Shown: in pieces, positions 15,812 to 57,624 of the stretch
Numbering within the stretch: position 1 is the stretch's first letter
Layout of the letters: each line of letters opens with the position of its first letter
Position numbers and translations under genes: made by a program
NCBI GenBank assembly: GCA_965284395.1
Contig: OZ260084.1
Span: forward strand, 3,158,566 to 3,222,565
DNA length: 64,000 bases
Direction: 5' to 3'
DNA from: Limisphaerales bacterium
Lineage (GTDB): Bacteria > Verrucomicrobiota > Verrucomicrobiia > Limisphaerales > UBA9464
The notes under the pieces: model-generated
The model's database searches: none
What the model saw: only the letters and a program-made list of their open reading frames with translations
What the model was told of the DNA's origin: nothing

Positions 15812-16564
15812 ATGATTGGGAATCGGCTTGGGCGCGGGGTGGTCGTAGTCGGCATGCTGCTGCTTGGGGTGGCATGCGCCGCTCCGGCACGGGCGCAGGT
15901 CGGGGTGGTTGCGGGGCCGATCGTGAATCCGGCGAACGAACATGAGTACTTCCTCCTTTCGCCGGGTGGGTGGCATGAATCGGAGACGCTTGCGATCGCG
16001 ATGGGTGGGCATCTGGTGACGATTGACGACGCATCGGAGCAGGCGTGGGTCTTCGACACGTTCGGTGCCTGGGGCGGGACCCATCGGAGTCTGTGGATCG
16101 GGCTGAGCGATGCGGCGCAGGAAGGTGAGTTCGTCTGGGCGGACGGGTCTTTGACGGGCTATTCGAACTGGCTGCCCGGCCAACCGGACAACAGCCCGGT
16201 CACGGATGGCGAGGACTACGTGCACATGCTCAATACGGGGAACGAGTATGGGCATCCCGGCGGATTCTGGAATGACCTCAAGAGTCCGAACTCGGTCTTC
16301 ACGACCTTTGATCCGGTTTGTGGTGTGGTGGAGCTGCCGTATCCGGTGCGGCCGACCCTGCAGTGGGTGGGCAATTCCCCCATGCTCTGCTGGAGGGCCA
16401 GACCCGGGACCCGGTGCCGCCTCGAGTTTCGGGCGACACTGGATGCCGGGGCCTGGTCGGAGTGGACGGTGGTGACGACGGACGCCAGTGGTCGGTCGTG
16501 TGTGGAAATGACGGGAGTCGTGGGACAGGGAGAAGGGTTCTTCCGGTTGGTTGTGGTGGAATGA
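15812..16564 (+). CDS. Secreted C-type lectin domain protein (QPD motif) with C-terminal conserved module
   Basis: signal peptide 'MIGNRLGRGVVVVGMLLLGVACAAPARA'; CTLD blocks 'WIGLSDAAQEGEFVWADGS...YSNWLPGQPDN...EDYVHM...GFWNDLKSPNS'; ends 'GEGFFRLVVVE'. Confidence 0.8.
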   Translation: MIGNRLGRGVVVVGMLLLGVACAAPARAQVGVVAGPIVNPANEHEYFLLSPGGWHESETLAIAMGGHLVTIDDASEQAWVFDTFGAWGGTHRSLWIGLSDAAQEGEFVWADGSLTGYSNWLPGQPDNSPVTDGEDYVHMLNTGNEYGHPGGFWNDLKSPNSVFTTFDPVCGVVELPYPVRPTLQWVGNSPMLCWRARPGTRCRLEFRATLDAGAWSEWTVVTTDASGRSCVEMTGVVGQGEGFFRLVVVE

Positions 16565-24555: not shown

Positions 24556-27500
24556 CTACGGGCGCATCAGGCGGAACATGCGTTGGTCATCGTCGACCGG
24601 GAGAAGGACCGTGTAGCGGTCGCCGACGAGTTGCGGCGTGTTCGGCAGGTTCTGCCATTCCGAGTTGGAGACCTCGGAGTTGGCCTGGACCAGGAGGCCG
24701 GGGAAGTTGCTGCTCCAGGAGAGCTTCACCTGGTTGTTGGGGGCGGATTCGATGGCGAGCTTGAGGCCCACGAAGATCGGCCATTCCCAGGAGTAGGTGC
24801 CGCCGTCGTCATCGGAGACCGTCATCTTGATCCGGAAGATGCCGTCGCCGGGGAAGGCGTGGGCGAGTTGGACCTTGCGGTCTTCGGTGACGCCGAGCTT
24901 CTGCTCGGGGCTGGAATCACCCCAGTTGACGAGGGCGGTGAAGGTGTCGGCGCCGGGGTCGATGATGTCGATGATCTGGTCGAGGGCCTCGCCGGAGGCG
25001 AGGACCTTGGGCGGTCCCTGGAAGAAGACCGGCGGGTGATTGGTGACGAGGACCGGGTCGTAGGCCTGGATCGAGGAGATGCCGTTCGGGCTGAAGAGGT
25101 GCGCCGTGATCGCGCGGGTGGTCTCCGACGGGCCGGTCGGGGTGTCGTCAGCGTACTTGTGGCCGATGGCGAAGCTGCCGCCGGTGACGTTGTTGGTGGT
25201 GTTGGGAGTGCCATCGCCCCAGTTGACGACGAGCTTCATGGTATCCTGGAGGTTGGTCCATTCGTAGAGCCCGTTGAGGGTCATCACGGCACCTTCCATC
25301 ACCGGGGTCTGGCCGGCGAAGCGGGTGATGACGGGGTTGGGTTGGCCGCTGATGATGGCGAACTCATTTCCGTTTCCGCCATTGTACCTGGCCGTGAAAG
25401 TGCCGCCGGCGGTGTGCAGGACCGTGTTGGCCGGGATGGCGTCGAAGGTGCCGCCGATGACCAGGACCGAGACGGTCTCGATGAGGGCGATGGCTTGTCC
25501 GGAGGGGATGACGTTGTGGACCTCGAGGTCGAGCTTGGCGCCGCCGAGGGTCGTCTTGTCCTGGACGCGGATCTGGTCGTAGCCCGTGCCTGCAGTCGTG
25601 CCGTTGACGTGGGCTTCGTAGATGGCGCCCGCTTCGAGGTTCAGGTCGTTGTCGACGATGATGCGGCCGGGGCCGAGCCTGCCGGGCGAGACGGTGCCGC
25701 CGGCCTTGACGGTGAGGGTGTCGATGGTGGGTTCACCGGTGAGGATGGCTTCGGCGGTCACCTCGACCGTGGCGTTCGGGAGGTTACCGTTGAGGTTCAA
25801 TTCGCCGCCGGACACGAAGATCTTGCCGGCGAAGTCACCGGTGGCGGTCATGGCGAGTCGGCCGGTGCCGGACTTGATGAAAGTGGAACCGGGCGTGCCG
25901 TTCAGGGTTCCGTCGAACTCCACGTTGTGGATGTTGTCGGCGAAGAGGGTCCTGAGGACGCCGTCGTTGAGCTGGATGGTGCCGCGGCCGTCCACGACGC
26001 GCACCACCTCGGCCTCTGCGCCCATGGACAGGGTGCCTGTCTTGAGGATGAAGATGGACAGGTTGTCCGGGATTTGGTGCGACCCGCTCAGAGTGAGCTT
26101 GGCGGTGACCATTCCGGCTTGAGGTTGGCCGACGGTGATCGAACCTCCGGTGGCGGTGGCCAGGGGAGCCTTCGCGAGGATGAGCTCACCCTGGGCCACG
26201 TCGATGCCGCCCTCCATCGTGTTGGACTCGGTGCCGCCGAGACGGAGCGGTGCGCTGCCGTCCTTGATCAATTCGCCAGGACCCGTGATGGGGCCATTGA
26301 GCTGGGCAAGGCTGGGGCTGCCGCCAGCGGTAACCCGGGTGATGCCTTCGAGGTGGATGGGGCCGTTCCAGAAGGAATTGTTGCCCAGGCCCAGCTCAAC
26401 CGCGTTTTGAAGGGTGCCGGGGCCCATCCACAGCGATTCCCCGGCGATACCCTTGAAGGAGCCGATGAAGAGGGATGCGCCCAACTCGATGCGGACGCCG
26501 CCGGCGGTCGTTCCGAAAGCCTTGGAGTTGTCAGCGGCGAGGGAGCCTGCCTGCGCCTGGACGGGACCGCTGAAGGTGTTCGCGCCGGCGAGGCTGAGGC
26601 CGCCAGGACCCGTCTTGACGATGCCTGCACCCTCGGCGCCGGAGATGGCGGCACTGATGGTCAGGTAGCCCGAGGTATTGAACGTGCGGGTGGCGGAGCC
26701 GAGCGAGATGGCACCATCGATGACGGAGGATCCGGTGGATTCGACGTCGGCGCTGAGGGTGACCAGCGCGCCGTCCGTGTAGAGCCGGCCGCCGTTGATC
26801 GAGAGGGGCCCGATGGTGTCCGTGAAGCTCGCGGTCTGGAGCATGCCGGACTCGTTGATGGTGATCTTGGCGGTATCGGCGATCTGGTCAGCGGCAAGAT
26901 AGCGGACCTCGGCAGGGACGCTGCTGCCCGGGGTGCCGATGATGATGTCTTCCGGGATCGCGGGGGCACCGGTGAGGATTCCGACGCTGAGGTCGAGCCG
27001 GCCGGCCGCGACGCGGGTGATGCCGGTGTAGAGCGAGCTGGCTGCCGAGTCGAGGAGCAGGATGCCGCTGCCGATCTTGGAGAAGCCGCCGGCGCCGCGA
27101 AGGACGCTCTCGATGCGGAGCGTCTGGTTGGTGGCGACGGAGAATTCGTTGAAGTTCCGGCCGTTGCTCAGCTGGAGCGAGAGGGAGGAGGCGATCTTGT
27201 TTCCGGAGCCGGTCGAGGAGACGAGGCCGCCGTTGCGGAGGGTCACGATGTTGCCGGCGCCCTTGCCGAACAGCGTGTAGTTGTTGCCGGTGATGCGGAT
27301 CTCGTCGACGACCAGGCCGGCGAGGTCATTGGTCGAAAGCTTCTCGGAGGCGGACTCGGGGAACACGAGGATGACGGGAGATGCCTCGTTGGTGGTCGGC
27401 ACGCCGCCGTTCCAGTTGAAGGGGTCGCTCCAGGTCCGGGTGATGTTCCCGAAGAATCCCGTGCCGTGCCAGGTGTGGGTGTCGGCCTTGGCGAGAGGGG

Positions 27501-27557
27501 AGGCGAGCGTGAGGGTCGCCAGGCCCGCCGCGATGCCGTATTTGATTTTCGTTTTCA
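24556..27557 (-). CDS. Large secreted surface protein with autotransporter-associated beta-strand (PATR) repeats, two PKD-like domains and C-terminal conserved module
   Basis: signal peptide 'MKTKIKYGIAAGLATLTLASPLAKA' (ATG 27557); many 'G.L.L.G.NTY/FSG.V.V.AG.L' repeats; 'VNWGDGT...GHKYADD' and 'VNWGDSSP...MTVSDDDGG' PKD signatures; ends 'QRMFRLMRP'. Confidence 0.8.
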
Positions 27558-27874
27558 TTTCTGGTGACGGCTCCCGTTGTATCCGAGGCGGGTGTCGGCG
27601 CGGAATCCGACCTCGGTCCGGCGGATGCGGCGGAACATCCGACTCTGGTGGTAGGACGAGGGGCGGAGGGGGGAGGGGCAGAAGCCCGGGCTCATGCACC
27701 CCGTCGCGAATCAGGGAGGGGTGTAGCTGCTGCAACCCCTGCCGGGGTTGGTGTCGAGCTGGGCGCAGGACCCGGGGTCGCTTCGCACCCCGTATTGCCT
27801 ACCGGCTGCCACGCCTCCGGCGTATGGGGTGGAGTTCCGCCTCCTGACGTTGGCGGCTACGGAGGTTGCTGGGT

Positions 27875-32969: not shown

Positions 32970-33683
32970 TCAGGCCGATTTCCGCCGCCGAAGCGCCAGG
33001 GCGGTGGCAGCGGCCCCGACGGGCACCAAGGCGAGCAGGCTGGGCTCCGGAACGACGGCAGTGGAGGGCATCGTGGTGATCGCGGCGCCGCGGACGTCGT
33101 TGTAGGCGAAGCTCAGGAGGGTGACGCTGTAGTCGGGGTTCACGTTGATCTCGGCGTATCCGTAGAAGATGTCGCTCGAGCTGCTGCCCGAGGGATCACG
33201 CATCGTCAGGCCGATGTAGCCGCGTCCGCCGGCTGCCCAGTTGCCGAAGGTTGGGCCGAGATCGGTGTAGCCAGCGCCGGGGTTCTGGTAGCCGACGCCT
33301 GGTCCGATGGTTTCGCCGTCGCCGAAGCGGGCGGGGTTCAGGTTGGAATTGCTGGCGTAAACGACGCCGTTGCCGTTGCTGAAGAAGCCCTGGGTCCAGA
33401 TCTCGGCCTCAGGTTGGACGTAAAGGTTGTTCCACATGAGCCAGTACTGGCCGTCGGCAAAGAAGGTCGACGGATAGGTGTAGCCGCGGCTCTCAGCGTA
33501 GCCGGTCAACGGGTTGAACCAGATGCCGGTGCCGTCGTTGGCGCCGACGCCCGAGTTGAACGGGTTGTAATTCGGAGCCGTGGTGAGGTCGGCGATGTCG
33601 GTGACATGGACCTCGGCGGCGAGTTGGGTGGTGATCAGTCCGGCCAGGATGCCGGCGCTCCAGGATTTCAGGTTCATTTTCAT
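32970..33683 (-). CDS. PEP-CTERM sorting-domain secreted protein
   Basis: signal peptide; Gly/Asn/Tyr-rich body; C-terminus 'VPEPSLLALVPVGAAATALALRRRKSA' = PEP motif + TM + basic tail. Confidence 0.8.
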   Translation of the reverse strand: MKMNLKSWSAGILAGLITTQLAAEVHVTDIADLTTAPNYNPFNSGVGANDGTGIWFNPLTGYAESRGYTYPSTFFADGQYWLMWNNLYVQPEAEIWTQGFFSNGNGVVYASNSNLNPARFGDGETIGPGVGYQNPGAGYTDLGPTFGNWAAGGRGYIGLTMRDPSGSSSSDIFYGYAEINVNPDYSVTLLSFAYNDVRGAAITTMPSTAVVPEPSLLALVPVGAAATALALRRRKSA

Positions 33684-33888: not shown

Positions 33889-36297
33889 ATGAGGGTGAAG
33901 GTCCTTCGATCCGTGGGTGGGGATCCTGTTTCCGGACCGCGTCCGTTGGCGTGGTTTGCATGCTTGGCGTTGCTTGTCCCTCCTGCTGTGGCGGCCCCGG
34001 CTGGGGCAGCGAGCGGGAGGCTTTCGTTCCTGGCTACCGATGCCGACGGCGACGGGTTGGAGGATGCCTTGGTCAGGCAGGCCGTCGGCGCACGGGAGGC
34101 AGCCAGCGATGGAAGCGTTGAGGTGGAAGTGATCTTCGGTCGGGAACCGGAGGCGTCGTCGTTGTCGGGCTTCGAGGGCGTCGGGGGCAAAGTGCTGCAT
34201 CGCTTCCGGGCAGTTTCGCGGGGGTGGATCGGGCGTGTTCCGCTGCGGTCGGTTCCGGACCTTCCGCGGGTCCTCGGTGAGGACTTGATCCAGGTGGAAG
34301 GGCCGAGAGCGATGGAGATGCACCTCGACCAAGCGACTTGGACCGGGCGCGCGCGTTCGGTGTGGGCAGGGTTGCCGGGTGTGGGATCCGGTCTGCGCGG
34401 GGATCCGGGCATCGTGGTTGGGATCATTGATTCGGGGGTGGATGCCGGGCATGCCGACCTCGCGGGCCGGATGGCGTCCTGGCGGGATTATTCGAAGGAC
34501 GGCTCGCTGGTGCCGACCGACCATTCGCAGCACGGCACGCACGTGGCATCGGTGGCGGTGGGAACGGGAGCGGCGGGTGAGACTTTTGGAACGGAGCTTC
34601 GTGGGTCGTTGGCGGGAAACCTGGTGGGGGTCTTGAGCAACAACTTCCTGACGACGTCGATCGCCTTTCCGGAAGGCGCCGTGGATTTCCGGGCGCACGC
34701 CCGATGGCAGGGTGGCGGCTCGGGGGTTTTCCGCCTGATGTCGCGTCCCCGTACGGCGAAGGTGGGCTGGATCACGGAAGGCGTGCCGGTGACTGGGGAA
34801 TCGCCGCTGGAGCTGTCGATGTCGATCGCGGGTGATCCGCTGCGGGAGTATTCGCCGGTGCTGGTATCGAACGGGAGCATGGCTGACTACGCGGTGGATT
34901 TCCGGGTTTCGGGGTGGGCCGGTCTGGATGCCTTCCCGCGGTTCTCCGGGGTGGCCCCCGAATGCCGGTGGGCAGCTGCCCGGGTGTTTGCGAGCGATGG
35001 CTCGGGCTCGCTGGTCTGGACCGGTGCCGCGCTCGATGACCTCGTGGCGGAGCGCGAGCGGATGGGGATCCGGGTGATCAACATCAGCCTCGGCGCGAGC
35101 GGTGCGCCCGGGATCTCGGTCTCGACACGGCAGAAGGTGAACGCAGCGGTTCGGCACGGGGTGGTGGTCGTTTGTTCGGGCGGCAACGACGGGCTGATCG
35201 GGAGCGCGACAGCGCGGGAGACGGATGACCCGGGACGTGCGGCATTGGCGATCACCGTGGTCGCAGCCAATGACGTGAACCAGCTGACCGACTACTCGAG
35301 CATTGGTTTCCCAACTCCGGATTCGCAGGTCGGGCAAGAGGAGGACTTCAAGCCGGATCTGATGGCCCCGGGAGGGTCGAGTTTCCACTCGGCCATCCTG
35401 GCGGCGGACTCCGGTTCCGGGGATACACGCTCCTTCGTGGACCAGCAGGCGGATGACTACTGGAGCAACCAGGGCACGTCGGTCGCGGCACCCTTCGTGT
35501 CGGGCGCCGCGGCATTGGTGATCCAAGCCTTCCAGCGTGCCGGCGTGGCGTGGGACTACGGATCGGAACGGATGCCGATGCGGGTCAAATCGGTGTTGTG
35601 TGCCACGGCCACGGAGTCGAACTCGAACCGGGAAGGGTTCGCCAACCACCCGACGTTGCAACGGTCGGGTACTGGGCCAGGGGCCTATCCCTCGGGCAAG
35701 GATGGCTTCGAAGGGTATGGCTTGCTGAACGTGGACGCGGCGGTGGAGGCGGTGCTGGGTCGGTGGGAATCGGGTATTGCCCTCGAGGGGGTTCTGGGTG
35801 GGGGGCCGGGCGAACGGCGAGCCTGGGCCCGGCGATTCTCCGTGCCTGCGGCGACCCGGGCACGGATCCGGCTTCAGGTGCCGTCCTTCGGTGACTTCGA
35901 CCTGTATGCCTACTCGGACGAGCCCGGGCGATTCGGGGCGCCGCAGCTCCTGGCGTCGAGTGCAGGCGCGGGAGGCGGAGGGACGGAGACTATGGAGGTG
36001 GGCGGAGATCAGGTGGTGGAGGGTTTCGTGGTGGTGAAGCGGGTTTCGGGCCTTGGCCGGTTCCGGTTGGAGGGGGGAGTTGGGGCTGGGCCCGAGGTGA
36101 CGGCGGGGTGGAAGGCGGGGAAGTTGGAGGTGGTGTTCCCGACGGTGGTGGGGTGGGGCTACGAGGTCCAGCGACAGGCCGTCTGGGGTGGGGCGTGGAG
36201 CCCGGTGGTCGAAATGCCTGGCGACGGTGGGCCGCGGGTGGCGCTCCTGGATGTGGAAGGGGATGAAACGGGATTTGTCCGGGTGCTTGTGAAGTGA
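33889..36297 (+). CDS. Secreted subtilisin-like serine protease (S8) with C-terminal conserved module
   Basis: signal peptide; catalytic triad blocks 'VGIIDSGVD', 'HGTHVASVAVG', 'GTSVAAPFVSGAAALV'; ends 'ETGFVRVLVK'. Confidence 0.85.
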   Translation: MRVKVLRSVGGDPVSGPRPLAWFACLALLVPPAVAAPAGAASGRLSFLATDADGDGLEDALVRQAVGAREAASDGSVEVEVIFGREPEASSLSGFEGVGGKVLHRFRAVSRGWIGRVPLRSVPDLPRVLGEDLIQVEGPRAMEMHLDQATWTGRARSVWAGLPGVGSGLRGDPGIVVGIIDSGVDAGHADLAGRMASWRDYSKDGSLVPTDHSQHGTHVASVAVGTGAAGETFGTELRGSLAGNLVGVLSNNFLTTSIAFPEGAVDFRAHARWQGGGSGVFRLMSRPRTAKVGWITEGVPVTGESPLELSMSIAGDPLREYSPVLVSNGSMADYAVDFRVSGWAGLDAFPRFSGVAPECRWAAARVFASDGSGSLVWTGAALDDLVAERERMGIRVINISLGASGAPGISVSTRQKVNAAVRHGVVVVCSGGNDGLIGSATARETDDPGRAALAITVVAANDVNQLTDYSSIGFPTPDSQVGQEEDFKPDLMAPGGSSFHSAILAADSGSGDTRSFVDQQADDYWSNQGTSVAAPFVSGAAALVIQAFQRAGVAWDYGSERMPMRVKSVLCATATESNSNREGFANHPTLQRSGTGPGAYPSGKDGFEGYGLLNVDAAVEAVLGRWESGIALEGVLGGGPGERRAWARRFSVPAATRARIRLQVPSFGDFDLYAYSDEPGRFGAPQLLASSAGAGGGGTETMEVGGDQVVEGFVVVKRVSGLGRFRLEGGVGAGPEVTAGWKAGKLEVVFPTVVGWGYEVQRQAVWGGAWSPVVEMPGDGGPRVALLDVEGDETGFVRVLVK

Positions 36298-39998: not shown

Positions 39999-40928
39999 TC
40001 AGTAGGTCGCGCGCACCCGATAGAAGCGATTGGGATCGCCGCTGGGATCGACCACGACCGCCGGGTAAGTCTTCGCGGCGGAGTCGGTGGGTAGGTCCGT
40101 GCCCGAGTAGACCTTGGCCGGAATGGCTTCCGGGGGAAGGTTGGTGAGCGCGTGCCAGTTCGGCGGGAACTCCGTCGTGTATTCCACGAAGTTGGTCCGA
40201 CCTGCGACCGGGTTCCACGTGACTTCCGTGAGACCGTCCTGGCGGTTGTGAACGCGGACACGGAGCAGGGTGACGTCGCAGTAGACGAGGTCCGCCAGAT
40301 CGACGAATCGGACGCCATCCGCACGGGTGGCAAGCTTGAGGAGGGGTAGTTCGCCGAAGGGAGATCCAGCGTTGACGATCAGGTTGGGCGCATTGGTCGG
40401 CGTGGTGGCGGCCACGTACCGCGTGAAGCTGTTCCAGGCCGTGAGAGTGTTGGTCCCGCTGATCACCCGACCAAAGACGGTGAATCCGCCGGAATTGTTG
40501 GTGTTGTCGAGGGCGGTGTTGTTCTGGAGGTTGATGAAGAACTGGGAGTTGGCGGAGTTCGGATCGGCCGTCTTGGCCATCGCGATCGTCCCGGCAACGT
40601 TCGAGAAGAATGGGCCAACCCCGTATTCGTTGGTGATGTTCGCCCGGGATGTGACGTTGGCGACGGTGTTCGAGGACGTGCCGCGGTTGGCGACACGGAA
40701 TCCCCCGCCCTGGATCACGAAATTCGGCACCGCCCGGTGGAAGAACATGTCCCGATAAGCGCCGTCAGCTACGTAACGGACGAAGTTGGTCGAAGTGATC
40801 GGCTTTTCGGTGTCGTACAACTCCACTTCGACATCGCCGAGGACGGTCCGGAACTGGACGACGGTGCCGGCATTCAGGCTGAAGGTCGCGGAGGCGATCA
40901 ACGCGATGGCAAGGCGGGATCGGTGCAT
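39999..40928 (-). CDS. Secreted cyclophilin-type peptidyl-prolyl isomerase with C-terminal conserved module
   Basis: signal peptide 'MHRSRLAIALIASATFSLNA'; 'FHRAVPNFVIQGGGF' and 'SQFFINL' cyclophilin motifs; ~110-aa C-terminal extension ending 'NRFYRVRATY'. Confidence 0.85.
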   Translation of the reverse strand: MHRSRLAIALIASATFSLNAGTVVQFRTVLGDVEVELYDTEKPITSTNFVRYVADGAYRDMFFHRAVPNFVIQGGGFRVANRGTSSNTVANVTSRANITNEYGVGPFFSNVAGTIAMAKTADPNSANSQFFINLQNNTALDNTNNSGGFTVFGRVISGTNTLTAWNSFTRYVAATTPTNAPNLIVNAGSPFGELPLLKLATRADGVRFVDLADLVYCDVTLLRVRVHNRQDGLTEVTWNPVAGRTNFVEYTTEFPPNWHALTNLPPEAIPAKVYSGTDLPTDSAAKTYPAVVVDPSGDPNRFYRVRATY

Positions 40929-45079: not shown

Positions 45080-48000
45080 CTACAACTTCGGGTCGAGGGA
45101 TTCCCGGATGAAGTCGAACCGCTGGTCTGACTTCAGCTGCGTGCGGAGGTTCGCGCTTGCCGGGTTGGTCGCGAGGCGCGAATCACTGAGCTGAAAGGCC
45201 TTTCGCAGGCTGCCGGCGGCTGAACTGGACTTGCCTTGGACCGCCTGGACGGCGGCGAGCTGGTACCAGGCCTCCGGGCTGTCAGGCACCAGCCGGGCAT
45301 AACGCTCCATGGTGCCCTCGACGCGGTCGACGCGCTGGAGTTGCTGGTAGGCTTGGGCAAGGGAAGCGAGCGTGCGCAGGTCTGCATCCGGCTTCGCCAA
45401 CAGGCTGTCCAGGACGGCGACGCCTTCGTTGCTGCGCCCGGTGTTGAACAGGGTACTGGCCAGGTTGAACGCCGACTCCAGGTTGGTCGCGCCCGTCGAT
45501 GGGAAGGCGGCCGTCGATGGTTGCGCCGGCGTGCCGACCCCGGCTGCCGGCAGCGGCGAGTCCTTGTAGGGCTCGAGCTGCTTCAGGAGATCGCGGATGC
45601 CCACGTTGTCCGGGTCGATCTCGTAGCAGGTGGCGACGACGCGGTAGGCGTCGGGGTACCGGCCAAGACCGGCGAGCAGGGACGCGTAGTTGAAGACCGT
45701 TTCCGGGCTGTACGGGCAAAAGGCGAAGGCCTGCTTCATCGCGAACTCGGCCTCCTTGATCAGCTTGGCCTGATAGACCGGGTCGCGGGCTTCCTGCGCG
45801 CGCCAGCCGTAGACGGACTTGCCGATGGCATTGCGGAGCTTGCTGAAGGCTTTCTGGGCGTTGTCGTCCCGTACAAAACGCGCGTCGCCCTTGAACCCGG
45901 CGTAATCCCGGAGTCGGTAGGTGCGGATGGCAAAGTCACACACATCCTTCACGGGAGTTTCGTAGGTGATCCAGTTGCCGATGAACCGTTCGGAGTACTG
46001 GGACCAGTACTCGTGATCCCGCTGCAGCTGGTCATCGGAAAGCTGGGCGACGGGCTCACGTTCGATCTTGAGGATGATGCCGTACGGAACGAGGTGCGGA
46101 TACATCCAGTCGAGCGCAAAGCTCTCTTCGACGTAGAAGGAGTGATCCGGGTTCTTGTCGAAGATGACCTTGGTAAGGAGTCCGTTGATCGACATGACCG
46201 CGGTCTGTCCCGAGACCGAGACCCGTCCGTCGGGAAGCTGGGTCAGCACTTCGCCCGGCTTCAATTGCCGGGACTGGGCGCGGCGTTGGGCATCGATGCT
46301 GTACTCCTCGAAACAGCGCCTCAGGTCATCGGGAGTGGGAGTCTGGATCTCCCGGTCTGGATAAAGTCCGCCCGGGCTTGGAACGATGAGGCCAGGGTAG
46401 GCTTCCTCGATGAGGAGTCGGTTGAGACGGATGCGATTGTGGCCCGTCGGAGCCTGGGCGGCAAAACGCGCGACGTGATCCGACAATTTGACCGCGGCGA
46501 ACCGGCTCTTCTCGAAGAAGGACGGTCCCTCGATGAACTGGTTGAGCCCCTCGATGAGCGCGGCGGTCTCGTCACTGCCTGCGGGGCCAAGCTTCTCCTT
46601 TAGATACGCCGACACGGGGTCTGCAGCGGCGGTGATCTTTGCCTTCAATGCGGCAACGTCCTTGAAGTCAACGGCCTGGAAATAGGACGAACCCGCTCGG
46701 CGCTCTTTCTCGATCGAGTCGCCCATGGCGGTCATCCATCGATCGATCGGCCCCATCATCTTGGCCCAGTCGTTGGTTCGACCACGGGAGATCGAGACGG
46801 AGTCGTTCAGCATGGAGTAGAAGAACGGCGGATCGTTCTGGGCACTGCGATTGTAGTGCGCGCGGATGTAGTCGAGGTAGGTGTTGTCCGCGAGTGCGTT
46901 CTGGGTGATCAGGTAGACGTCCCGCCGGTCGAAATTGGGGTTCCGGCGATGCTGCGGGGGGATGAAACTCTCGCAGAAGATCATGTAGGTCGGGCAGAAT
47001 CGTCCCGGATCGGTACCACCGAACAGCACGGTGTGCTTGTCCATCGACGGGTACAGTGGTTTTCCGTCCTTCCCCTTCGGGGCCGGTGCAGCGGACGTAT
47101 CCGCCCCGGGTTCAAACATGTCGTGGCCAAACCAGAATCCAAAGTAGTGGTCGCGCTGCTCGTTGTCGGCCCAGTGATCTAGGATCGAGTCAACGGGGAT
47201 CAACGTGAAGACGGCCAAGACCAACCCAAGGCGATTGCGGCTGTTGGGATCGGGTGGGACAGGCGCATTGGGTTTGCCCGCTGGTGCATGCTGAAATGCG
47301 ACAGTCGTCTCCTGCCAGATCAGGAAGAGGACAAGCAGGATCCCCGCAATTCCCAAGCTGATCCCAGCAGCCAGACGGGGGATGAAGAACACGTTGATGT
47401 CATCCCGGAAAACCTCGATCAGTTGGTACAGATTCAGGGAGACCGCCAAGGTCGCGCCGCCCAGCAGAAAGACCCTCCACTTCGAGTACGCATGTTGTAC
47501 CAGGGCCCCCACGATCGCGAGACCGTAACCGACCACCATGGCGATCATGACGTGCGAGGAGGTGTAGAACACTTTCACCAACTCTCTCGACTGCTTGTCG
47601 GTCTGCGCGTTGAGGAGGTAGATGAGGAGGAATGCCAGGCAGAAGTAGGTTGTGCTCAGGCCGATCAGCCAGCCCCGCTCGCGTTGCCTGAAGCGCCGGA
47701 TCAGGATGAACGGGACGATCGCGAAGATCAGGTTTGCGAGGTTGAATTCCTCTTTGACACCACCGAAATACGCGAGGATTTGATCGATCGTGATTCCCGG
47801 TGAGGTCTTCTCGTACTGGCCACGGGTAAAGGCGTGGATGAAGCCGTCCCAGACCCGGGGATACCCCCAGTTCAACGGCGGATTCGTCACCGACGCCAGG
47901 GGCATGTAGAAGTAGTGGAGCGCTCCCACTCCGAATGACAGCCCAGACAAAATGACGATGTGAAGCCGTGTGGCAATTGCCCCGGTCAGCACCGCCGTCC

Positions 48001-48895
48001 AGATCGTCCCGATGGCCGAAAGGATGCCGACGAGGTTGAAGATCAGAAGAAGGGCGGGGTTCTCCGTGAAGGTCCTGATCTTGCCGCTGGCGTGCCCGAC
48101 GAGGCCGAGTACCCAGCAAAACGTGTTCAACAGAAGGAAGTCCCGGCCTACCCGACGATCCGCCATCAGCACAAAGACCTCGAGGCCCATCGCGGCAACG
48201 ATGAGGGTTTGGTGATTGCAGAACGAGATGCCGAAGAGGAAGCAAGCAATGTAAAGGTGCCGGCGCTGGTGAGGAAACCAGCTGTACTTCTTGAGGCAGA
48301 ACAGTACGCCCATCAAGGACCAGACCGCGATGGTGTAAACCTCTACGATGACGGCTTGGCTCCAGATGTAGCCGTTGAAACCCAACAGCATTCCGGACAC
48401 GAAACCCGTTACCAGGGAAATCCGGTTGTCGAGGGAGGCGTCGCGGTCCTTCAGAAGGTCGACCGAATCGAGGATCAGCGCGGATCCGCGGGAGACCAGC
48501 ATTGCCACCATGCCGGCAGACATGGCCGCCGCGAAGGCAGACGACACTGCCACCCGCCACGCTATGTTGGAGAAGGGAAGGAGCTTGGTGAAGAGCCACG
48601 TATAAACGGTCCAGACAGGGTAGCCCGGCGGGTGTGGCACGCCTGCATACATCGAGGCCACGGCAAGCTCCCCGGAATCCTCCAGGGTCATGTCGGGGGC
48701 GATTGTGTACATGTAGCCCGCCATGACGATGATCGTGACGAGCACGAAGGCCAGCCAGTCGACAGGGCGCAACAGTCGCCCTAGCGGCGGCGGAGCCTCG
48801 ACCTTGCTGCCGCCGCCCCCCCCGGCGACTGAACTCATCTTGGGGACCGACGGTGCGCCGGATGGGACGCTCGAAGTGGAACTCGCTTGTGCCAT
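45080..48895 (-). CDS. DUF2723-type giant membrane protein (PMT/glycosyltransferase-39-like) with C-terminal TPR repeats
   Basis: 1271 aa; N-terminal ~500 aa polytopic; C-terminal TPR-like helices; operonic with ECF sigma / anti-sigma. Confidence 0.75.
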   Translation of the reverse strand: MAQASSTSSVPSGAPSVPKMSSVAGGGGGSKVEAPPPLGRLLRPVDWLAFVLVTIIVMAGYMYTIAPDMTLEDSGELAVASMYAGVPHPPGYPVWTVYTWLFTKLLPFSNIAWRVAVSSAFAAAMSAGMVAMLVSRGSALILDSVDLLKDRDASLDNRISLVTGFVSGMLLGFNGYIWSQAVIVEVYTIAVWSLMGVLFCLKKYSWFPHQRRHLYIACFLFGISFCNHQTLIVAAMGLEVFVLMADRRVGRDFLLLNTFCWVLGLVGHASGKIRTFTENPALLLIFNLVGILSAIGTIWTAVLTGAIATRLHIVILSGLSFGVGALHYFYMPLASVTNPPLNWGYPRVWDGFIHAFTRGQYEKTSPGITIDQILAYFGGVKEEFNLANLIFAIVPFILIRRFRQRERGWLIGLSTTYFCLAFLLIYLLNAQTDKQSRELVKVFYTSSHVMIAMVVGYGLAIVGALVQHAYSKWRVFLLGGATLAVSLNLYQLIEVFRDDINVFFIPRLAAGISLGIAGILLVLFLIWQETTVAFQHAPAGKPNAPVPPDPNSRNRLGLVLAVFTLIPVDSILDHWADNEQRDHYFGFWFGHDMFEPGADTSAAPAPKGKDGKPLYPSMDKHTVLFGGTDPGRFCPTYMIFCESFIPPQHRRNPNFDRRDVYLITQNALADNTYLDYIRAHYNRSAQNDPPFFYSMLNDSVSISRGRTNDWAKMMGPIDRWMTAMGDSIEKERRAGSSYFQAVDFKDVAALKAKITAAADPVSAYLKEKLGPAGSDETAALIEGLNQFIEGPSFFEKSRFAAVKLSDHVARFAAQAPTGHNRIRLNRLLIEEAYPGLIVPSPGGLYPDREIQTPTPDDLRRCFEEYSIDAQRRAQSRQLKPGEVLTQLPDGRVSVSGQTAVMSINGLLTKVIFDKNPDHSFYVEESFALDWMYPHLVPYGIILKIEREPVAQLSDDQLQRDHEYWSQYSERFIGNWITYETPVKDVCDFAIRTYRLRDYAGFKGDARFVRDDNAQKAFSKLRNAIGKSVYGWRAQEARDPVYQAKLIKEAEFAMKQAFAFCPYSPETVFNYASLLAGLGRYPDAYRVVATCYEIDPDNVGIRDLLKQLEPYKDSPLPAAGVGTPAQPSTAAFPSTGATNLESAFNLASTLFNTGRSNEGVAVLDSLLAKPDADLRTLASLAQAYQQLQRVDRVEGTMERYARLVPDSPEAWYQLAAVQAVQGKSSSAAGSLRKAFQLSDSRLATNPASANLRTQLKSDQRFDFIRESLDPKL

Positions 48896-50829: not shown

Positions 50830-52400
50830 TTTCCGCCGAAGGCGGCTCTTTTCAATTCCCTTTTGCGCTTCCGCGCTTTTGCCTGACTTCCCCTGCGTCT
50901 AGGTCGCCACGGCCGACGCTGGAACCGTCATGACGGCTTCATTGGCAGGGGGCTGCGCTTGCGCACCCAAGTCTTGGGCGGGAGGACTGTTTCGGAGGGT
51001 GTACTCCCGGCCCGACTTGCGGGTGCGGAGGATTTCCATCGCCTGTTCCCGAGCGTCCTTGCGGGTGATGCCCAGTGCGTCGAGGCCCTGTTGGCCGACG
51101 CGGGAGATGATTTTTCCGAGCTTCTGGACCATGGGTTTGGCGGCTTGCTCCATGGGGTCGGTGAGTCCCATGAGCGAGTACCAGACCTGGGTGATGAGCT
51201 TGCGGGCCAAGGCTGCCACCACAAGCGAGACCTCGCCCTTTCGGCCCAGCAGCTTGCGGCCCCAGTCGCTGTTGGGATGCTTGGATGAACGCAGCAGCGA
51301 GTGGCCTGCCTCGATGAGAAGGGCGCGGAGATCCTTGTGCCCATGCCCCTTGATGCCGCCTGACTTGGTACCCTTGCCACTGTCGTCGAAGGCGGGGTTG
51401 AGGCCGACGAACTTGACGAGGGATTTCGGGGACTTGAATCGGTTGATGTCACCAACGACTGCCCCGATGGCGAAGGCGATGACATCGCGGATGCCGGTGA
51501 GTCGGGTAAGTTCGAGGAGCTTTGGATCCTGGAGGACCTGTTGGGCGACGAGGCTGGCCAAGCGTCGCTCGAGTTCGATGTGGTATTCGAGTTCGAGCAA
51601 GCGGATCTCCAGGATCTGGGTCTGCATTGGATTCCAGGTCCTGGCCTTGAGGATGGCGGTGCGGCGTTCGTCACGGCCGAGGTCCAGGAGGGACTCTCCC
51701 AGTCGGACGCCGTTGTCACTGAGGTAGGAGGAGAGGGAATTGTTGGCGGCAGTGACGCCCTTGACGGCCCTGCGGTGTGCGTGGAAGAGGTCGCGTCGCT
51801 CCTGGGTGAGTGGATCGGGGACCCAGACGAGCTTGGCGTTGCCGCAGAGGTAGGCGCGAGCGATGCGGGTGGCGCTGATGCGGTCGTTGTTGGCGTGTGA
51901 TTCCTTGAGCTTGCCGATGAAGACACTCTCCAGAACGAGAGCGTTGCGCTCGATGGCGCGCAGCTTGCGGACGGCGTCAAAGGTGTTGCCGGAGGCCTCC
52001 AGGACAAGGGTGTCGGTGGGGAGGGTGTTCTTCTTGGCCCAGGAAGCGAGCTGGGCGATGGGAACCTTGTTGAAGGTTTGCAGCACAACAGCCGCCAGGG
52101 GAGTAGGCCCTTGGAGGATGGAGGCGGTGAAGGAATCCGGGTGGACGTCGAGACCGACGACCCGGGATACGGTGGGTGGTATGGATGATTGCTGCACTGG
52201 ACAGGATGTGTTAGTGAGCAGGTGGACGGAGACGGGCCAGGCGACTACATGCACTCAGGTATGCGGGGCGGTCCCCAATGTAGGTGCTTTTCGCCGAAGC
52301 TCGATTCACAGAAACGGAGTGTTGAGCTCCAAGTGCAATCAACGAGCAACTCCCGAAGTGCCACCTGTCTGTTTAGCAAAGACCGACAGGCCCAAAGGTG
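50830..52400 (-). mobile_element. IS110-family insertion sequence (approximate bounds)
   Basis: transposase ORF plus GC hairpin/T-tract 50833-50860; IS110 elements lack clear TIRs so ends are not defined from sequence. Confidence 0.4.
50899..52254 (-). CDS. IS110-family (DEDD) transposase
   Basis: N-terminal 'VVGLDVHPDSFTASIL' and C-terminal 'LTGIRDVIAFAIGAVVGDINRFKSPKSLVKFVGLNPAFDDSGK...DLRALLIEAGHSLL' IS110 blocks; start codon uncertain (GTG). Confidence 0.8.
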   Translation of the reverse strand: MHVVAWPVSVHLLTNTSCPVQQSSIPPTVSRVVGLDVHPDSFTASILQGPTPLAAVVLQTFNKVPIAQLASWAKKNTLPTDTLVLEASGNTFDAVRKLRAIERNALVLESVFIGKLKESHANNDRISATRIARAYLCGNAKLVWVPDPLTQERRDLFHAHRRAVKGVTAANNSLSSYLSDNGVRLGESLLDLGRDERRTAILKARTWNPMQTQILEIRLLELEYHIELERRLASLVAQQVLQDPKLLELTRLTGIRDVIAFAIGAVVGDINRFKSPKSLVKFVGLNPAFDDSGKGTKSGGIKGHGHKDLRALLIEAGHSLLRSSKHPNSDWGRKLLGRKGEVSLVVAALARKLITQVWYSLMGLTDPMEQAAKPMVQKLGKIISRVGQQGLDALGITRKDAREQAMEILRTRKSGREYTLRNSPPAQDLGAQAQPPANEAVMTVPASAVAT

Positions 52401-52494
52401 TACCCGTCTCCGTCCATCCTGCAATTGCTACCCGAGTGCTCCCGGGACCGCACACAAACCTCATACCCTCACGGATGACACGGATAAGCCGGAA

Positions 52495-52625
52495 CTTGGC
52501 TTGGGATCGCCGCGCACCTGCGAGGTGAGCGCTCGACCGGGATGGAAACCTTCATTCCAGCCCTGTCCATCCGTGGAATCTGTGAAATCCGTGGTCAAAA
52601 AACCGCCGCTTTTGGGTTGAAATCA
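52495..52625. repeat. Intergenic repeat element, copy C (shorter)
   Basis: ttgggatcgccgcg...gggatggaaac...ccatccgtggaatctgtgaaatccgtggtcaaaaaaccgccgcttttgggttgaaa aligns with right halves of copies A/B including the 3x9-bp array. Confidence 0.4.
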
Positions 52626-53035
52626 GCGCCCGCCCGCGGAGTGGATGCCGGAAAGATGGAGCGACACCCCTGCCATTCAGCATCAGACCGATGATCGGAA
52701 AATCGGGCACGCGCCCCCGGCGAAAGCCTGGCGATGGGCGCGGTGAGATTGGCCGTCGAAGCGGGCTAAGGGTGAGGTAGTGCTCCTTGGCGACCTCCGT
52801 CAGTTGAACTGTTCGATGGTTGGCTCGGGGATGGTGAAGCTTGCCTTGGGTGCGCATCCCGTAAGCCCAAACTACATAAAAGCCGATCCATGGGTGGGCC
52901 ATGCCAATGCAGGTCCAGCAAAGGACTCCGGCCGAGTGGTTGAACCCAGCGAGGGAACCCATCATGCAGCCCTGAGATGATCGCGGGACGCGGAACCCTT
53001 TTGAGGATGGATTTGAAAATTCTCAAAAAAAAGCG

Positions 53036-53063
53036 TTGCGACTTCGGCGGCGATTCCTAATCT
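53036..53063 (+). promoter_or_regulatory. Candidate sigma-70 promoter of ribosomal-protein operon (TTGCGA-N16-TAATCT)
   Basis: in AT-richer leader ~130 bp upstream of rplB; preceded by hairpin ttttgag-N15-ctcaaaa + A-run. Confidence 0.25.
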
Positions 53064-53195
53064 CTGCGCTCCCGTTTCGCCTCTAACAGGGCAAAACGAT
53101 GAGCCCGGCCGATAACCAAGTTGCTCCAGGCAACTGGGAGTGATGGCTGAGTGCACGCCAGCGAGTGCTGCGTGTCCGAATTTGAATTTTTGCCT

Positions 53196-54044
53196 GTGAA
53201 AACATTTAGGCCTCTAACGCCCTCGACGCGTTACATGACGTACGCCGACTTTTCGGACATCACGAAGAGTCGTCCGGAGAAGTCGCTGGTTTATACCCGC
53301 AAGAAATCTGGCGGCCGTAATAGTTACGGCCGGGTGACCGCCCGAGCGATCGGTGGCGGACACAAACAGAAGGTTCGGGTGGTAGACTTCCGACGCAGCA
53401 AGATCGGCATCGAAGCCAAGGTGGTCGCTGTGGAGTATGATCCGATCCGGAGCGCCCGGCTTGCTCTCGTCGAATACACCGACGGTGATCGGCGATACAT
53501 CATTTGCCCTGAAGGGCTCAAGGTGGGCACGACCATCATGAATGGTCCCTCGGCCCCTCCTACGGTGGGGAATTGCCTTCCCCTCTCCGCTATCCCCATG
53601 GGTGTCACGGTTCATAATGTTGAGCTGGTGCCGGGCAAGGGCGGTCAAATGGTTCGCTCGGCAGGCTCTGGAGCGACGCTGATGTCGAGGGACGCTGGGT
53701 ATGCTCAGCTTCGCCTTCCCTCTGGCGAAATCCGCAAGGTTCATGAGAACTGCGTCGCCACCATCGGTCAGGTAGGCAACACCCAGCATGAGAATGTTGT
53801 CCTCGGCAAGGCCGGCCGCAGCATCCATCGGGGACGTCGTCCGATGTCCCGAGGCATGGTCCGCAATCCTGTGGACCATCCCAACGGTGGCGGTCAGGGT
53901 AAGTCCAAGGGTGGTGGTGGTCGCCAGCATCTAGTCTCGCCGTGGGGTGTCCTTGCCAAGGGCTATCGCACTCGCGAAAAGCGCAAGAATTCCAACCGGT
54001 TCATCCTGGTTCGCCGGGACGGCCGACCGATGAAGCTCAAGTAA
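53196..54044 (+). CDS. rplB: 50S ribosomal protein L2
   Basis: '[27 protein letters not shown]', '[22 protein letters not shown]', '[13 protein letters not shown]'; GTG start. Confidence 0.95.
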
Positions 54045-54048
54045 GCAT

Positions 54049-54330
54049 ATGGGACGTTCTCTCAAGAAAGGGCCGTTTGTGGACCAACACCTGATGGACA
54101 AGGTCCAAAAGGCTCGGGCTACAAAGTCCAAGGCACCGATCAAGACGTGGTCGCGCCGATCGACCATCACCCCCGACTTCGTCGGGCTCACCGTCAACGT
54201 GCACAACGGGCGTGTGTTCAATCCTGTGTTCATCACTGAAAACATGGTTGGACATAAGTTGGGCGAGTTCAGCCTCACCCGCACGTTCAAGAAGCATGGT
54301 GCCCATACCGCGAAGGCGGAGGCCAAGTAG
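54049..54330 (+). CDS. rpsS: 30S ribosomal protein S19
   Basis: '[19 protein letters not shown]...[23 protein letters not shown]'. Confidence 0.95.
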
Positions 54331-54341
54331 GAAGGAATCCC

Positions 54342-54674
54342 ATGGAAGTGCACGCAATCTACAAGAATTTCCGCATGTCCCCGCAGAAAGTGCGGGAGGT
54401 GGTGCGACAGGTTCAGGGAATGAACGCAGTTCAGGCTCTGGCCGTCCTGAAGGTGGTGCCTCGCAAGTCCGCACGTGCGGTTGCGAAAACCCTGCAATCC
54501 GCCATCGCAAATGCCGAAAACAACCATGGTCTCAAGGCAGAGACCCTGAGGGTTTCCGGTGCCTTCGCCCAGACCGCCGGATCATTCAAGCGCTTCGTCC
54601 CGAAGGCTCGGGGCTCCGCTGGTCCGATCATCAAGCGAAACAGCCACATCAAGATCGTCCTCAGCGACAACTGA
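54342..54674 (+). CDS. rplV: 50S ribosomal protein L22
   Basis: 'RMSPQKVREVVRQVQGMNAVQALAVLK'. Confidence 0.9.
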   Translation: MEVHAIYKNFRMSPQKVREVVRQVQGMNAVQALAVLKVVPRKSARAVAKTLQSAIANAENNHGLKAETLRVSGAFAQTAGSFKRFVPKARGSAGPIIKRNSHIKIVLSDN

Positions 54675-54678
54675 TCCT

Positions 54679-55344
54679 ATGGGCCAGAAAACGAATCCGA
54701 TCGGCTTCCGCATTCCAGTCAATCACGACTGGCGCTCCAAGTGGTTTGCCAACAAGAAAGACTTCAGCGGACTGCTCGTCGAGGACCAGCTCATCCGCTC
54801 GATCCTGAAGAGGAAGCTTGAGAGCGCATCCGTTCCCAGGATCAACATTGAACGGGCGGCCAACCGCTGCCGCGTCACGATCTTCACTGCACGTCCAGGG
54901 GTAGTTATCGGACGGAAGGGCTCTGAAATCGACCGCCTCAAGGAGGAGCTCTCGAAGATTACTGGGAAGGACATCTACGTTGATATTCAGGAGGTCAAAC
55001 AACCTGACCTGGATGCACAGTTGGTCGCCGAGAACGTAGCCCTACAGCTCGAACGTCGAATCAGCTTCCGCCGTGCCATGAAGAAGGCGATTCAGATCGC
55101 AATGGACCTTGGCGCCAAGGGAATCAAGGTTCGTTGCGCCGGCCGCCTCGGAGGTGCTGAGTTGGCCCGGGTTGAAACCTACCATCAGGGCAGCGTTCCC
55201 CTTCACACGCTCCGAGCCAACGTAGACTTTGGCTTCGCAGAGGCCAAGACCGTCTATGGGAAACTCGGCGTGAAATGCTGGATCTGCAAGGGCGAGCCCA
55301 AGCGGGCCGAGCGCAAGCCTGAGCCCATCGCCAAGCCGGCATGA
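54679..55344 (+). CDS. rpsC: 30S ribosomal protein S3
   Basis: 'MGQKTNPIGFRIPVNHDWRSKWFA', KH domain 'VTIFTARPGVVIGRKGSEIDRLK'. Confidence 0.95.
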   Translation: MGQKTNPIGFRIPVNHDWRSKWFANKKDFSGLLVEDQLIRSILKRKLESASVPRINIERAANRCRVTIFTARPGVVIGRKGSEIDRLKEELSKITGKDIYVDIQEVKQPDLDAQLVAENVALQLERRISFRRAMKKAIQIAMDLGAKGIKVRCAGRLGGAELARVETYHQGSVPLHTLRANVDFGFAEAKTVYGKLGVKCWICKGEPKRAERKPEPIAKPA

Positions 55345-55388
55345 TTGATCCGGCTAACAACCGTACATTCTAGGAAAAAGGATTTCAT

Positions 55389-55808
55389 ATGGCCCTGATG
55401 CCCGCACGGGTGAAGTACCGCAAGATGCAGAGAGGCAGCCGCACCGGCCTTGCCTCCCGTGGTAACACCGTAGCTTTCGGAGAGTATGGTCTGCAGGCGC
55501 TCGAGCGCTGCTGGATGGATACGAAGCAGATTGAAGCGGCTCGTGTGGCGATTACCCGCTACATGAAGCGTCGTGGCAAGGTGTGGATCCGCATCTTTCC
55601 TGACAAGAGCTTCACCAAGAAGCCGCTCGAGGTTCGAATGGGCACCGGCAAAGGCGGGGTGGAGTCGTGGGTTGCGGTGATCCGGCCCGCCAGTGTGCTG
55701 TTTGAGATCGATGGCGTTCCCGAGGCGATAGCTCGTGAGGCCATGCGGCTGGCAGCTACCAAGCTTCCCATCTCAACCAAGTTCATTTCCCGGCATAAGC
55801 TCGGTTGA
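55389..55808 (+). CDS. rplP: 50S ribosomal protein L16
   Basis: '[14 protein letters not shown]...[10 protein letters not shown]...[18 protein letters not shown]'. Confidence 0.95.
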
Positions 55809-55819
55809 TTTTTTATCCC

Positions 55820-56029
55820 ATGGCTACCAACGCTTTCAAAGAGATGTCCGCGCAGGAGCTCGTCGCCAAGGGGCGCGAGTTGCGCCTTGAACTCTTCAAT
55901 CTGAGGCTCCAAAAGGCCACCGCACGCCTTGAGAAGCCGCACCGAATCCAGCAGCTGCGGCGCGATATTGCCCGTTGCGAAACCCGCTTGTCCTCGCTGA
56001 GGACGAAGTCGGATGGCAAAAAGGCTTGA
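55820..56029 (+). CDS. rpmC: 50S ribosomal protein L29
   Basis: '[52 protein letters not shown]'; TTG at 55805 overlaps L16 stop and is rejected. Confidence 0.9.
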
Positions 56030-56040
56030 ACCACAGGTAT

Positions 56041-56328
56041 ATGGCTGAAATTTCCGCAGATCGTGGCCACCGCAAGGAGCGAGTGGGAGAAGTGGTGTCC
56101 AGCAAGATGCAAAAGACGATCGTCGTCCGCGTCGAGCGTCGCTTCCGGCACCCTCAGTTCAAGAAGGTGGTGACAAGCTTCCAGAAGCTGTACGCCCATG
56201 ACGAAACCAACCAGGCGAAGGTCGGTGATCTGGTTCGTATTCAGGAAACCCGTCCACTGTCCCGCACCAAGTGCTGGCGGTTGATGGAGGTCCTCAACGC
56301 GGATGGGTCCTCCAAGACGGCCGCCTGA
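56041..56328 (+). CDS. rpsQ: 30S ribosomal protein S17
   Basis: '[34 protein letters not shown]...YAHDE'. Confidence 0.9.
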
Positions 56329-56361
56329 TCCGGAACCGAATAACTCCCAAGGGGACTCATC

Positions 56362-56727
56362 ATGCTTCAAATTCGCACTAGTCTTGATGTTGCCGATAAC
56401 ACCGGAGCCAAGGTCGCCTGGACCATTGGCGTTCTGGGACGCAACCAAGTTTACGCCCGTGTCGGTGATATCATCAAGGTCCACATCAAGGAGGCCGCCC
56501 CCGATGGCTCTGTCAAGAAAGGGGATGTTTGCACGGCAGTAGTGGTTCGGACCAAGCAACCGATCCGCCGTTCGGACGGGTCCTATCTCCGGTTCGATCG
56601 CAATGCGATCGTGATCATCAATGCCGAGGGCGAGCCCAAGGGGACACGCATCTTTGGACCGGTGGCCCGTGAGTTGCGCGAGAAGCGCTTCATGAAGATC
56701 ATCTCGCTGGCCCCGGAAGTCATTTGA
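56362..56727 (+). CDS. rplN: 50S ribosomal protein L14
   Basis: '[26 protein letters not shown]...[11 protein letters not shown]'. Confidence 0.95.
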
Positions 56728-56749
56728 GGTTCGAATAATTGCCAAGGTT

Positions 56750-57058
56750 ATGGCCAAATTTCATGTCAAAAAAGGTGACGAAGTGATCGTCATCGCCGGG
56801 TCGGCCAAGGGCCGGCGCGGCACTGTCTCCAAGGTGGTAACTTCTGAAGAGGCTGTCATCATCGAGGGAAACGACGAACGCTCCAAGGGGCAGGAGGATC
56901 GCTCCCGGTTGGTGAAGCCGGTCCTTCACTATCTTCGCAAGAGCCAGCAGAACCCTCAGGGCGGATTGCTTTGGCTTGAGGGACCTGTCCATGTGTCGAA
57001 CGTCATGAAAGCGGACGAGTACGAGCGCCGCCGAGCAAAGAAGACTGCCAAGAGCTAA
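56750..57058 (+). CDS. rplX: 50S ribosomal protein L24
   Basis: 'MAKFHVKKGDEVIVIAGSAKGRRGTVSKV' KOW motif. Confidence 0.9.
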   Translation: MAKFHVKKGDEVIVIAGSAKGRRGTVSKVVTSEEAVIIEGNDERSKGQEDRSRLVKPVLHYLRKSQQNPQGGLLWLEGPVHVSNVMKADEYERRRAKKTAKS

Positions 57059-57061
57059 GCC

Positions 57062-57601: not shown

Positions 57602-57624
57602 CTTCACCTACAACTTTCCAGACT

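Follow-up and report, generated by a model that had tools for sequence, protein, structure and literature searches.

The stretch of DNA analysed here, 64,000 nucleotides of contig OZ260084.1 from a Limisphaerales bacterium (the window), carries four genes for exported proteins that differ in their N-terminal domains and end in copies of one small module, which we call the RFYR-type module. The window has a high GC content (~0.66), and its source is a Verrucomicrobia genome: the locus of the cyclophilin, one of the four proteins, is 90% identical to a metagenome-assembled genome (MAG) locus, L001, from an "uncultured Verrucomicrobia bacterium". The four genes and their modules are as follows, with Pfam E values for the domains ahead of the module.

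15812-16564, + strand: C-type lectin gene, encoding a signal peptide, a C-type lectin domain (Lectin_C, 3.3e-8, residues 54-147) and the module; N-terminus MIGNRLGRGVVVVGMLLLGVACAAPARA, C-terminus GEGFFRLVVVE, then stop
16349..16561, + strand: RFYR-type module of the lectin, ending FFRLVVVE; stop codon 16562-16564
24556-27558, - strand: PATR/PKD surface protein gene, encoding a signal peptide, PATR repeats (PATR, 4.2e-18), a PKD domain (PKD_4, 4.5e-6) and the module; N-terminus MKTKIKYGIAAGLATLTLASPLAKA, C-terminus QRMFRLMRP, then stop
24559..24753, - strand: RFYR-type module of the PATR/PKD protein, ending MFRLMRP
33889-36297, + strand: S8 protease gene, encoding a signal peptide, an S8 subtilase domain (Peptidase_S8, 8.2e-41) and the module; C-terminus ETGFVRVLVK, then stop
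36109..36294, + strand: RFYR-type module of the S8 protease, ending FVRVLVK; the weakest of the four, with F for the first W and V for Y
39999-40928, - strand: cyclophilin gene, encoding a signal peptide, a cyclophilin domain (Pro_isomerase, 2.4e-35) and the module; N-terminus MHRSRLAIALIASATFSLNA, C-terminus NRFYRVRATY, then stop
40002..40274, - strand: RFYR-type module of the cyclophilin, ending RFYRVRATY, with an insertion of ~20 amino acids (aa) between strands C' and E

An earlier note on this DNA had described four unrelated secreted proteins that share a C-terminal segment. The open reading frames (ORFs) and their endings are as quoted there, except that the PATR/PKD gene starts at 27558 and not, one base off, at 27557, and the four different Pfam domains bear out the view that the cargo is unrelated. 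The motif F-[FYV]-R-[LV] does lie near the stop codon in all four, within a module of 60-90 aa, at a distance of 3-4 residues and not the 3-6 that had been given. By direct reading, all four N-termini are basic, then hydrophobic, then rich in small residues, as in signal peptides. The PATR/PKD protein has neither an autotransporter barrel nor a PEP-CTERM signal. A regular-expression scan of the window found no fifth real ORF with the motif at its end. In Pfam and NCBIfam scans of the four proteins, the last 60-90 residues had no match at E<=1, and Pfam gave no fn3 match to any of the four at that threshold.

A shared module in the four tails

An alignment of the four tails keeps L-x-W, G, h-x-h-[QE], W and F-x-R-[LV] in register. 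In pairwise Smith-Waterman alignments against 500 shuffles, only two of the six pairs rose above the controls, lectin with S8 protease (z 4.3, 2/500) and S8 protease with cyclophilin (z 2.1, 20/500); the other four were no better than shuffles, as would be expected if the resemblance were an effect of chance or composition. Word-indexed homologue searches, whether started from a single tail, a four-tail profile or a 35-sequence profile, returned orthologues or fragments only. An exhaustive search of 1.84 billion representatives with a six-sequence profile made from the tail alignment returned 4041 proteins at E<=1e-3. From the best 150 of these matches we cut 265 complete copies, excluded all orthologues of the window proteins, and built a hidden Markov model (HMM) from the outside copies; as these had been recruited with a tail-seeded profile, the resulting test is independent of the window sequences and not of their pattern.

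With this outside-only HMM the four tails scored 22.8-50.4 bits, against a maximum of 13.2 bits among 500 shuffles of each. The cyclophilin tail scored highest (50.4 bits), followed by those of the lectin (41.8 bits, against <=9.1 in its own shuffles), the PATR/PKD protein (36.6 bits) and the S8 protease (22.8 bits, against <=5.8). When the model was searched against the 669 ORFs of the window and locus L001, the four tails were the only matches among the six-frame ORFs of the window (E 7.6e-11 to 2.4e-4), the next window ORF having an E value of 0.23. All four matches lie at the C-terminal end and cover nearly the full length of the model: HMM positions 6-73 in the lectin (36.7 bits, E 7.6e-11), positions 11-72 in the S8 protease (15.6 bits, E 2.4e-4), and two pieces in the cyclophilin, positions 10-50 (29.8 bits) and 43-72 (15.0 bits), with a whole-protein E value of 4.6e-11. 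The similarity of the tails is thus not demonstrable by pairs and is demonstrable by profile. Given these scores, and the same motif spacing in thousands of database relatives, we rejected chance similarity, which we regard as practically excluded. The observation of a shared C-terminal module is confirmed.

The architecture of cyclophilin plus module is retained in L001 and in the protein P0072. A scan of genome contigs that started from the full-length cyclophilin yielded a single relative, L001, along with 36 unrelated cyclophilins.

A fibronectin type III relative that ends after strand F

The consensus of the family is ...P-x-I-T-S-I-x-x-x-N-G-x-h-x-L-T-W-N-A-V-A-G-x-x-Y-R-V-Q-Y-K-x-x-L-x-x-x-x-W-x-x-L-x-x-x-V-T-A-T-G-x-x-T-T-V-T-D-P-x-x-x-x-x-Q-R-F-Y-R-V-x-L-x-P. 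Conservation peaks at W20, G25, Y28, V30, W41 and the run R66-F67-Y68-R69-V70; with all five residues of this run conserved, the last strand is constrained on either face. Scans of 10 and then 61 members against Pfam and NCBIfam turned up no model for the module, only scattered sub-threshold matches to Tissue_fac, fn3, MIB_HERC2, AlcCBM31 and choice_anch_C, and Pfam fn3 reached 1e-5 in only 3 of 61 family proteins. The family carries no name in any source database, and literature searches on the motif and on verrucomicrobial C-terminal domains found nothing relevant, which is not proof that no description exists. It is, then, a large domain family without a curated model or a located paper. 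Every organism name on a member is Verrucomicrobiota or Pedosphaera; other phyla are not excluded.

The nearest relative among known domains is fibronectin type III (FN3; Pfam fn3, PF00041), in its bacterial form with the pattern "W..V.GA..Y.VYR ... YYY.V.A". The top 150 matches split into 78 RFYR-type proteins and 61 FN3-type proteins, the latter carrying ordinary bacterial FN3 arrays; a Pfam scan of five FN3-type proteins gave above-threshold fn3 matches in three. The two types share the strand order A to F, the W of strand B, the Y-x-V of strand C and the habit of forming tandem arrays in exported proteins. The module HMM places RFYRV on the FN3 F-strand motif Y-Y-Y-[RK]-V-[KR]-A (for example YYYRVKA; Y-x-Y-x-V). 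After this point FN3-type proteins continue for at least 13 more residues (FG loop and G strand) before the next repeat or the end, whereas the RFYR type lacks such a segment, and the tandem period is accordingly shorter, at 78 aa (interquartile range 76-83) against 90 aa (87-93). The module further differs from FN3 in its R-F-Y-R-V F strand, in a near-invariant W in C', and in being nearly always the last domain.

We also aligned 35 modules with 18 FN3 domains using hhalign, the FN3 set including human 10Fn3 and tenascin fn3 (TNfn3), sequences that were entered by hand. The alignment had a probability of 97.5% (E 5.9e-12) and placed module columns 9-77 on FN3 columns 7-70 of 90, leaving FN3 columns 71-90 without a counterpart in the module. 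Pfam fn3 matches in true FN3 proteins run 8-13 residues past the module's end, and the linkers that join tandem copies (median ~5 aa) leave no room for a G strand. Similarity to the FN3 superfamily is therefore present at the profile level, although the Pfam fn3 threshold is not reached and a G strand after F is absent by sequence. Judged from the alignments together with DSSP assignments, the module appears to comprise FN3 strands A, B, C, C', E and F with no counterpart of G, in agreement with the earlier description of an FN3-like segment that ends after the F strand. The HMM matches ordinary FN3 domains as well, as homology would predict; the earlier note had taken such cross-matching, in the absence of a C-terminal bias, as a reason to doubt a distinct module, yet the RFYR type separates from FN3 by its period and by its terminal position (77/78 against 34/61 proteins).

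An AlphaFold2 (AF2) model of the PATR tail, made with the six-sequence alignment, was confident (pLDDT 88.5) and all beta, with strands at residues 4-9, 13-19, 26-30, 39-40, 46-48, 51-57 and 64-68. A model of the two-copy protein P0006 made without an alignment was unusable (pLDDT 47). Foldseek searches against the PDB gave no match at E<=1e-3. By sequence, the nearest solved chains were CBM32/discoidin domains of Paenibacillus glucanase/chitosanase (4zy9_A, 2rv9_A and 4zxe_A, E 3e-5), ahead of consensus FN3 designs. The likeness covers module strands B to E and the pattern W...Y-x-[IV]...S-x-D...W; it is part of a 137-aa jelly-roll domain and stops short of the RFYR strand, whereas the predicted fold of the module is FN3-like. 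The match reflects either shared ancestry or a shared pattern.

The missing strand raises the possibility of an incomplete FN3 fold for which a partner protein supplies a beta-strand, whether by donor-strand complementation or by beta-augmentation along the open F edge; this would dock the cargo to a receptor or cargo proteins to each other. Chaperone-usher pilins, likewise beta-sandwiches without their last strand, are a precedent for G-less immunoglobulin (Ig) folds, and the F strand is the most conserved segment of the module, on both faces. However, internal copies also lack G and are joined by linkers too short to supply one. The confident model of an isolated tail, like the conserved arginines of the open edge strand, agrees with autonomous folding no less than with an incomplete fold; such arginines are known to keep edge strands from pairing. 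Pilins, moreover, have an N-terminal donor extension and nearby chaperone and usher genes, none of which was seen in the window, and the module has no sequence similarity to them and sits C-terminal to large globular cargo. We consider completion by a partner strand quite improbable.

Terminal position, cargo and genomic context

In Verrucomicrobiota the domain sits, singly or as 2 to ~10 tandem copies with short linkers, at the extreme C-terminus of diverse Sec-exported proteins. A copy ends <=5 residues from the C-terminus in 77 of the 78 RFYR-type proteins, and the 78th (P0102) has a diverged terminal copy (...AAFLRVRIVP). By comparison, the last repeat lies <=30 aa from the end in 34 of the 61 FN3-type proteins (Fisher p 7e-11). 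We also examined a DNA-level sample made up of 30 metagenome loci found by consensus peptide and five loci fetched for other reasons. The stop codon follows 0-4 residues after the HMM end in 36 of its 38 module-bearing ORFs, three of which are bystander genes not selected by the search, and most of these ORFs are single-copy. The proteins stop exactly where the domain does, and their last residue is often the proline with which the linker starts in internal copies. The one clear exception to the C-terminal rule is P0063 (3400 aa, mixed type), in which residues 2699-3400 hold seven copies followed by 392 aa of beta-propeller-looking repeats.

Within arrays, the terminal copy is less similar to internal copies (identity 0.357) than internal copies are to each other (0.485; 39/51 proteins, p 1.8e-6), and the last internal copy shows no such divergence (0.463 vs 0.465). 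In 18 proteins for which the first copy was compared as well, identity to middle copies was 0.396 for the first copy and 0.285 for the terminal copy, against 0.494 among middle copies. The divergence of the terminal copy is thus partly an array edge effect.

The cargo includes proteases (M12B reprolysin-like metalloproteases, S8 and proprotein-convertase-like), repeat or adhesin-type proteins (Big_9, cadherin-like, DUF11, MBG, Calx-beta, He_PIG, I-set, Ig_3, LTD and PATR), and a DUF5122 propeller, cyclophilin and C-type lectin. A signal-like hydrophobic N-terminus is present in 21 of 35 Met-starting family proteins; the remaining ones look like internal starts of fragments. One orthologue of the PATR/PKD protein (P0001, 84 aa, from a Logan assembly) has the PATR signal peptide fused straight to the C-terminal module, the passenger of ~900 aa being gone; this could be a naturally occurring deletion or else an artefact of assembly.

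The module could simply be an ordinary structural spacer, FN3-like and without a specific role, that came to lie at the end as a by-product of domain gain by 3' fusion and tandem duplication. Its clear FN3 homology, the frequency with which ordinary FN3 arrays are terminal too, and the contribution of the edge effect to terminal-copy divergence, the first copy having diverged as well, are all in keeping with this. Terminal placement is nonetheless much more frequent in the two samples (99% and 95%) than in the FN3 background, proteins of very different kinds have the lost G strand and the RFYR motif in common, and the module has been kept in orthologues that have diverged, the cyclophilins P0005 and P0072 among them. 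We accordingly view a passive spacer as an unlikely explanation.

A strict terminal rule on a small beta-sandwich carried by very diverse Sec-exported cargo is, in turn, the main argument for a C-terminal sorting domain. Such a domain would serve a route, so far undescribed, that leads cargo through the outer membrane of Verrucomicrobiota or onto it; a translocon or a sortase-like factor would recognise it, and it might then be removed. The model for such an element is the C-terminal domain of the type IX secretion system (T9SS) of Bacteroidota (Por_Secre_tail, TIGR04183), likewise an Ig-like sandwich of ~70-80 aa at the extreme C-terminus of unrelated Sec-exported cargo, with many carriers per genome. 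Four carrier genes in a 64-kb window would imply dozens or more per genome here too; the terminal copy is distinct from the internal ones, and Pfam and NCBIfam reveal no other anchor in the four window proteins. The T9SS domain is, however, single-copy, seven-stranded and dependent on the T9SS machinery, whereas arrays of 2 to ~10 modules break the single-copy rule, are unlike known sorting domains and are a misfit for a simple secretion tag, as are the 392 residues beyond the array in P0063. Pfam and NCBIfam scans (E<=1 to 10) gave no match of the module to Por_Secre_tail or TIGR04183. To our knowledge T9SS machinery is not known in Verrucomicrobiota, and neither SprA/Sov nor PorU/V-type components are among the genes of the window, which serve ordinary housekeeping and transport functions and include no obvious sorting machinery. 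No neighbour gene of the module genes is conserved across loci. The arrays and the lack of a partner gene that tracks the module weigh most heavily against sorting. We consider a sorting signal of this kind unlikely, though not negligibly so. It also seems doubtful to us that Verrucomicrobiota have an undescribed sorting or surface-attachment system, parallel in function to the T9SS C-terminal domain or to PEP-CTERM, in which the module serves for recognition or anchoring and its G-less FN3 fold docks via the open F edge onto an envelope receptor.

The genome does use at least two kinds of C-terminal element, because a 237-aa exported protein encoded at 32970-33683 (- strand) ends in VPEPSLLALVPVGAAATALALRRRKSA, a textbook PEP-CTERM signal. 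Both elements sit at the C-terminus of exported proteins, but the PEP-CTERM/exosortase signal consists of a short motif, a transmembrane helix and a basic tail, and the module is a folded beta domain. By direct reading none of the four tails has a VPEP motif, a transmembrane helix or a basic tail, and we rejected a PEP-CTERM identity for them, as the earlier note had done; no other curated sorting domain in Pfam or NCBIfam matched either.

Several loci carry the module in other settings. Giant S8 or proprotein-convertase-like proteins (2278-2994 aa) in L038:1-18985, L039:1-15582 and L041:1-16837 have module arrays at their ends, and in each the gene is the last of a cassette with T2SSF, 3-5 prepilin-type (GFTLIELL) genes, two genes for proteins of ~260-340 aa without assignment and one more such gene for a protein of 1211-1385 aa; NCBIfam matches these cassettes only below threshold, to Verru_Chthon cassette proteins A, C and D. 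Outside these cassettes, a scan for prepilin motifs did not connect module genes with pseudopilins in any general way. At L070:10099-11022 and L071:3739-4512 a prepilin-type gene lies directly downstream of two module genes with LTD and Ig cargo, which may be chance, such genes being very numerous in these phyla. Within the window itself, 45080-48895 (- strand) encodes a protein of 1271 aa that combines a TMEM260-like protein O-mannosyltransferase domain with TPR repeats at its C-terminus and might glycosylate exported proteins. Over the last 12 kb (~52000-64000) GC content falls from ~0.66 to ~0.58 and GC skew flattens.

A possible retention or binding module

The tails are single copies of a mobile, G-less FN3-superfamily domain of ~65-70 aa whose F strand has the consensus R-F-Y-R-[VL]-x-[LV]-x-P. 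The reading we prefer over a secretion tag or a donor-strand fold is that of a surface-retention or binding module, which would not be a cleaved secretion signal. We give this reading about an even chance of being correct. The module would fold autonomously as a six-stranded sandwich, as suggested by the absence of G from internal copies as well, by linkers too short to supply one and by the edge-strand arginines, which may shield the exposed F edge. Itself non-catalytic, it might then tether its cargo to some cell-envelope or matrix component, a step we propose with modest confidence, and copy number could set avidity or reach. Retention or binding is favoured because repeat number varies as it does in wall-binding modules, because most of the carriers are surface proteins of adhesin-like or degradative type that have no other anchor, and because the module takes the place of the autotransporter barrel in the PATR protein; proteobacterial PATR proteins have their barrel anchor at that position.

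There are parallels for such a role. The wall- or matrix-binding SLH, GW and choline-binding repeats, and the accessory PPC (PF04151) and P_proprotein domains of secreted proteases, are likewise without catalytic activity, often repeated and placed at the C-terminus of varied exported proteins; in the giant S8 proteins, P_proprotein and PPC domains precede the module arrays. The module is unrelated to all of these in fold and sequence.

Several points weigh against retention or binding. The C-terminal rule is far stricter than in most binding modules and resembles that of true sorting domains, and in the DNA-level sample, the less biased of the two, a single terminal copy is the commonest form, which a tag would predict. 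The last copy of an array, more diverged than the internal ones, could have a special role. No genomic partner ties the module to an envelope component, and the cyclophilin could equally be periplasmic as displayed at the surface. The strand topology, finally, is predicted from the FN3 alignment and DSSP and not from model coordinates.

Even if the module were purely structural, it would provide a clean definition of a large, FN3-derived and G-less family that is almost always C-terminal and has no Pfam or NCBIfam model, and a better annotation of hypothetical Verrucomicrobiota tails, and a naturally stable six-stranded FN3 would be of interest to fold evolution and to scaffold engineering. 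The discovery of a partner system would make the family far more interesting. If the module does retain or sort its cargo, it would be a marker of the surface proteome and exoproteome in an abundant, poorly studied soil phylum and, via phylogenetic profiling, a handle on how these bacteria display proteases, lectins and adhesins.

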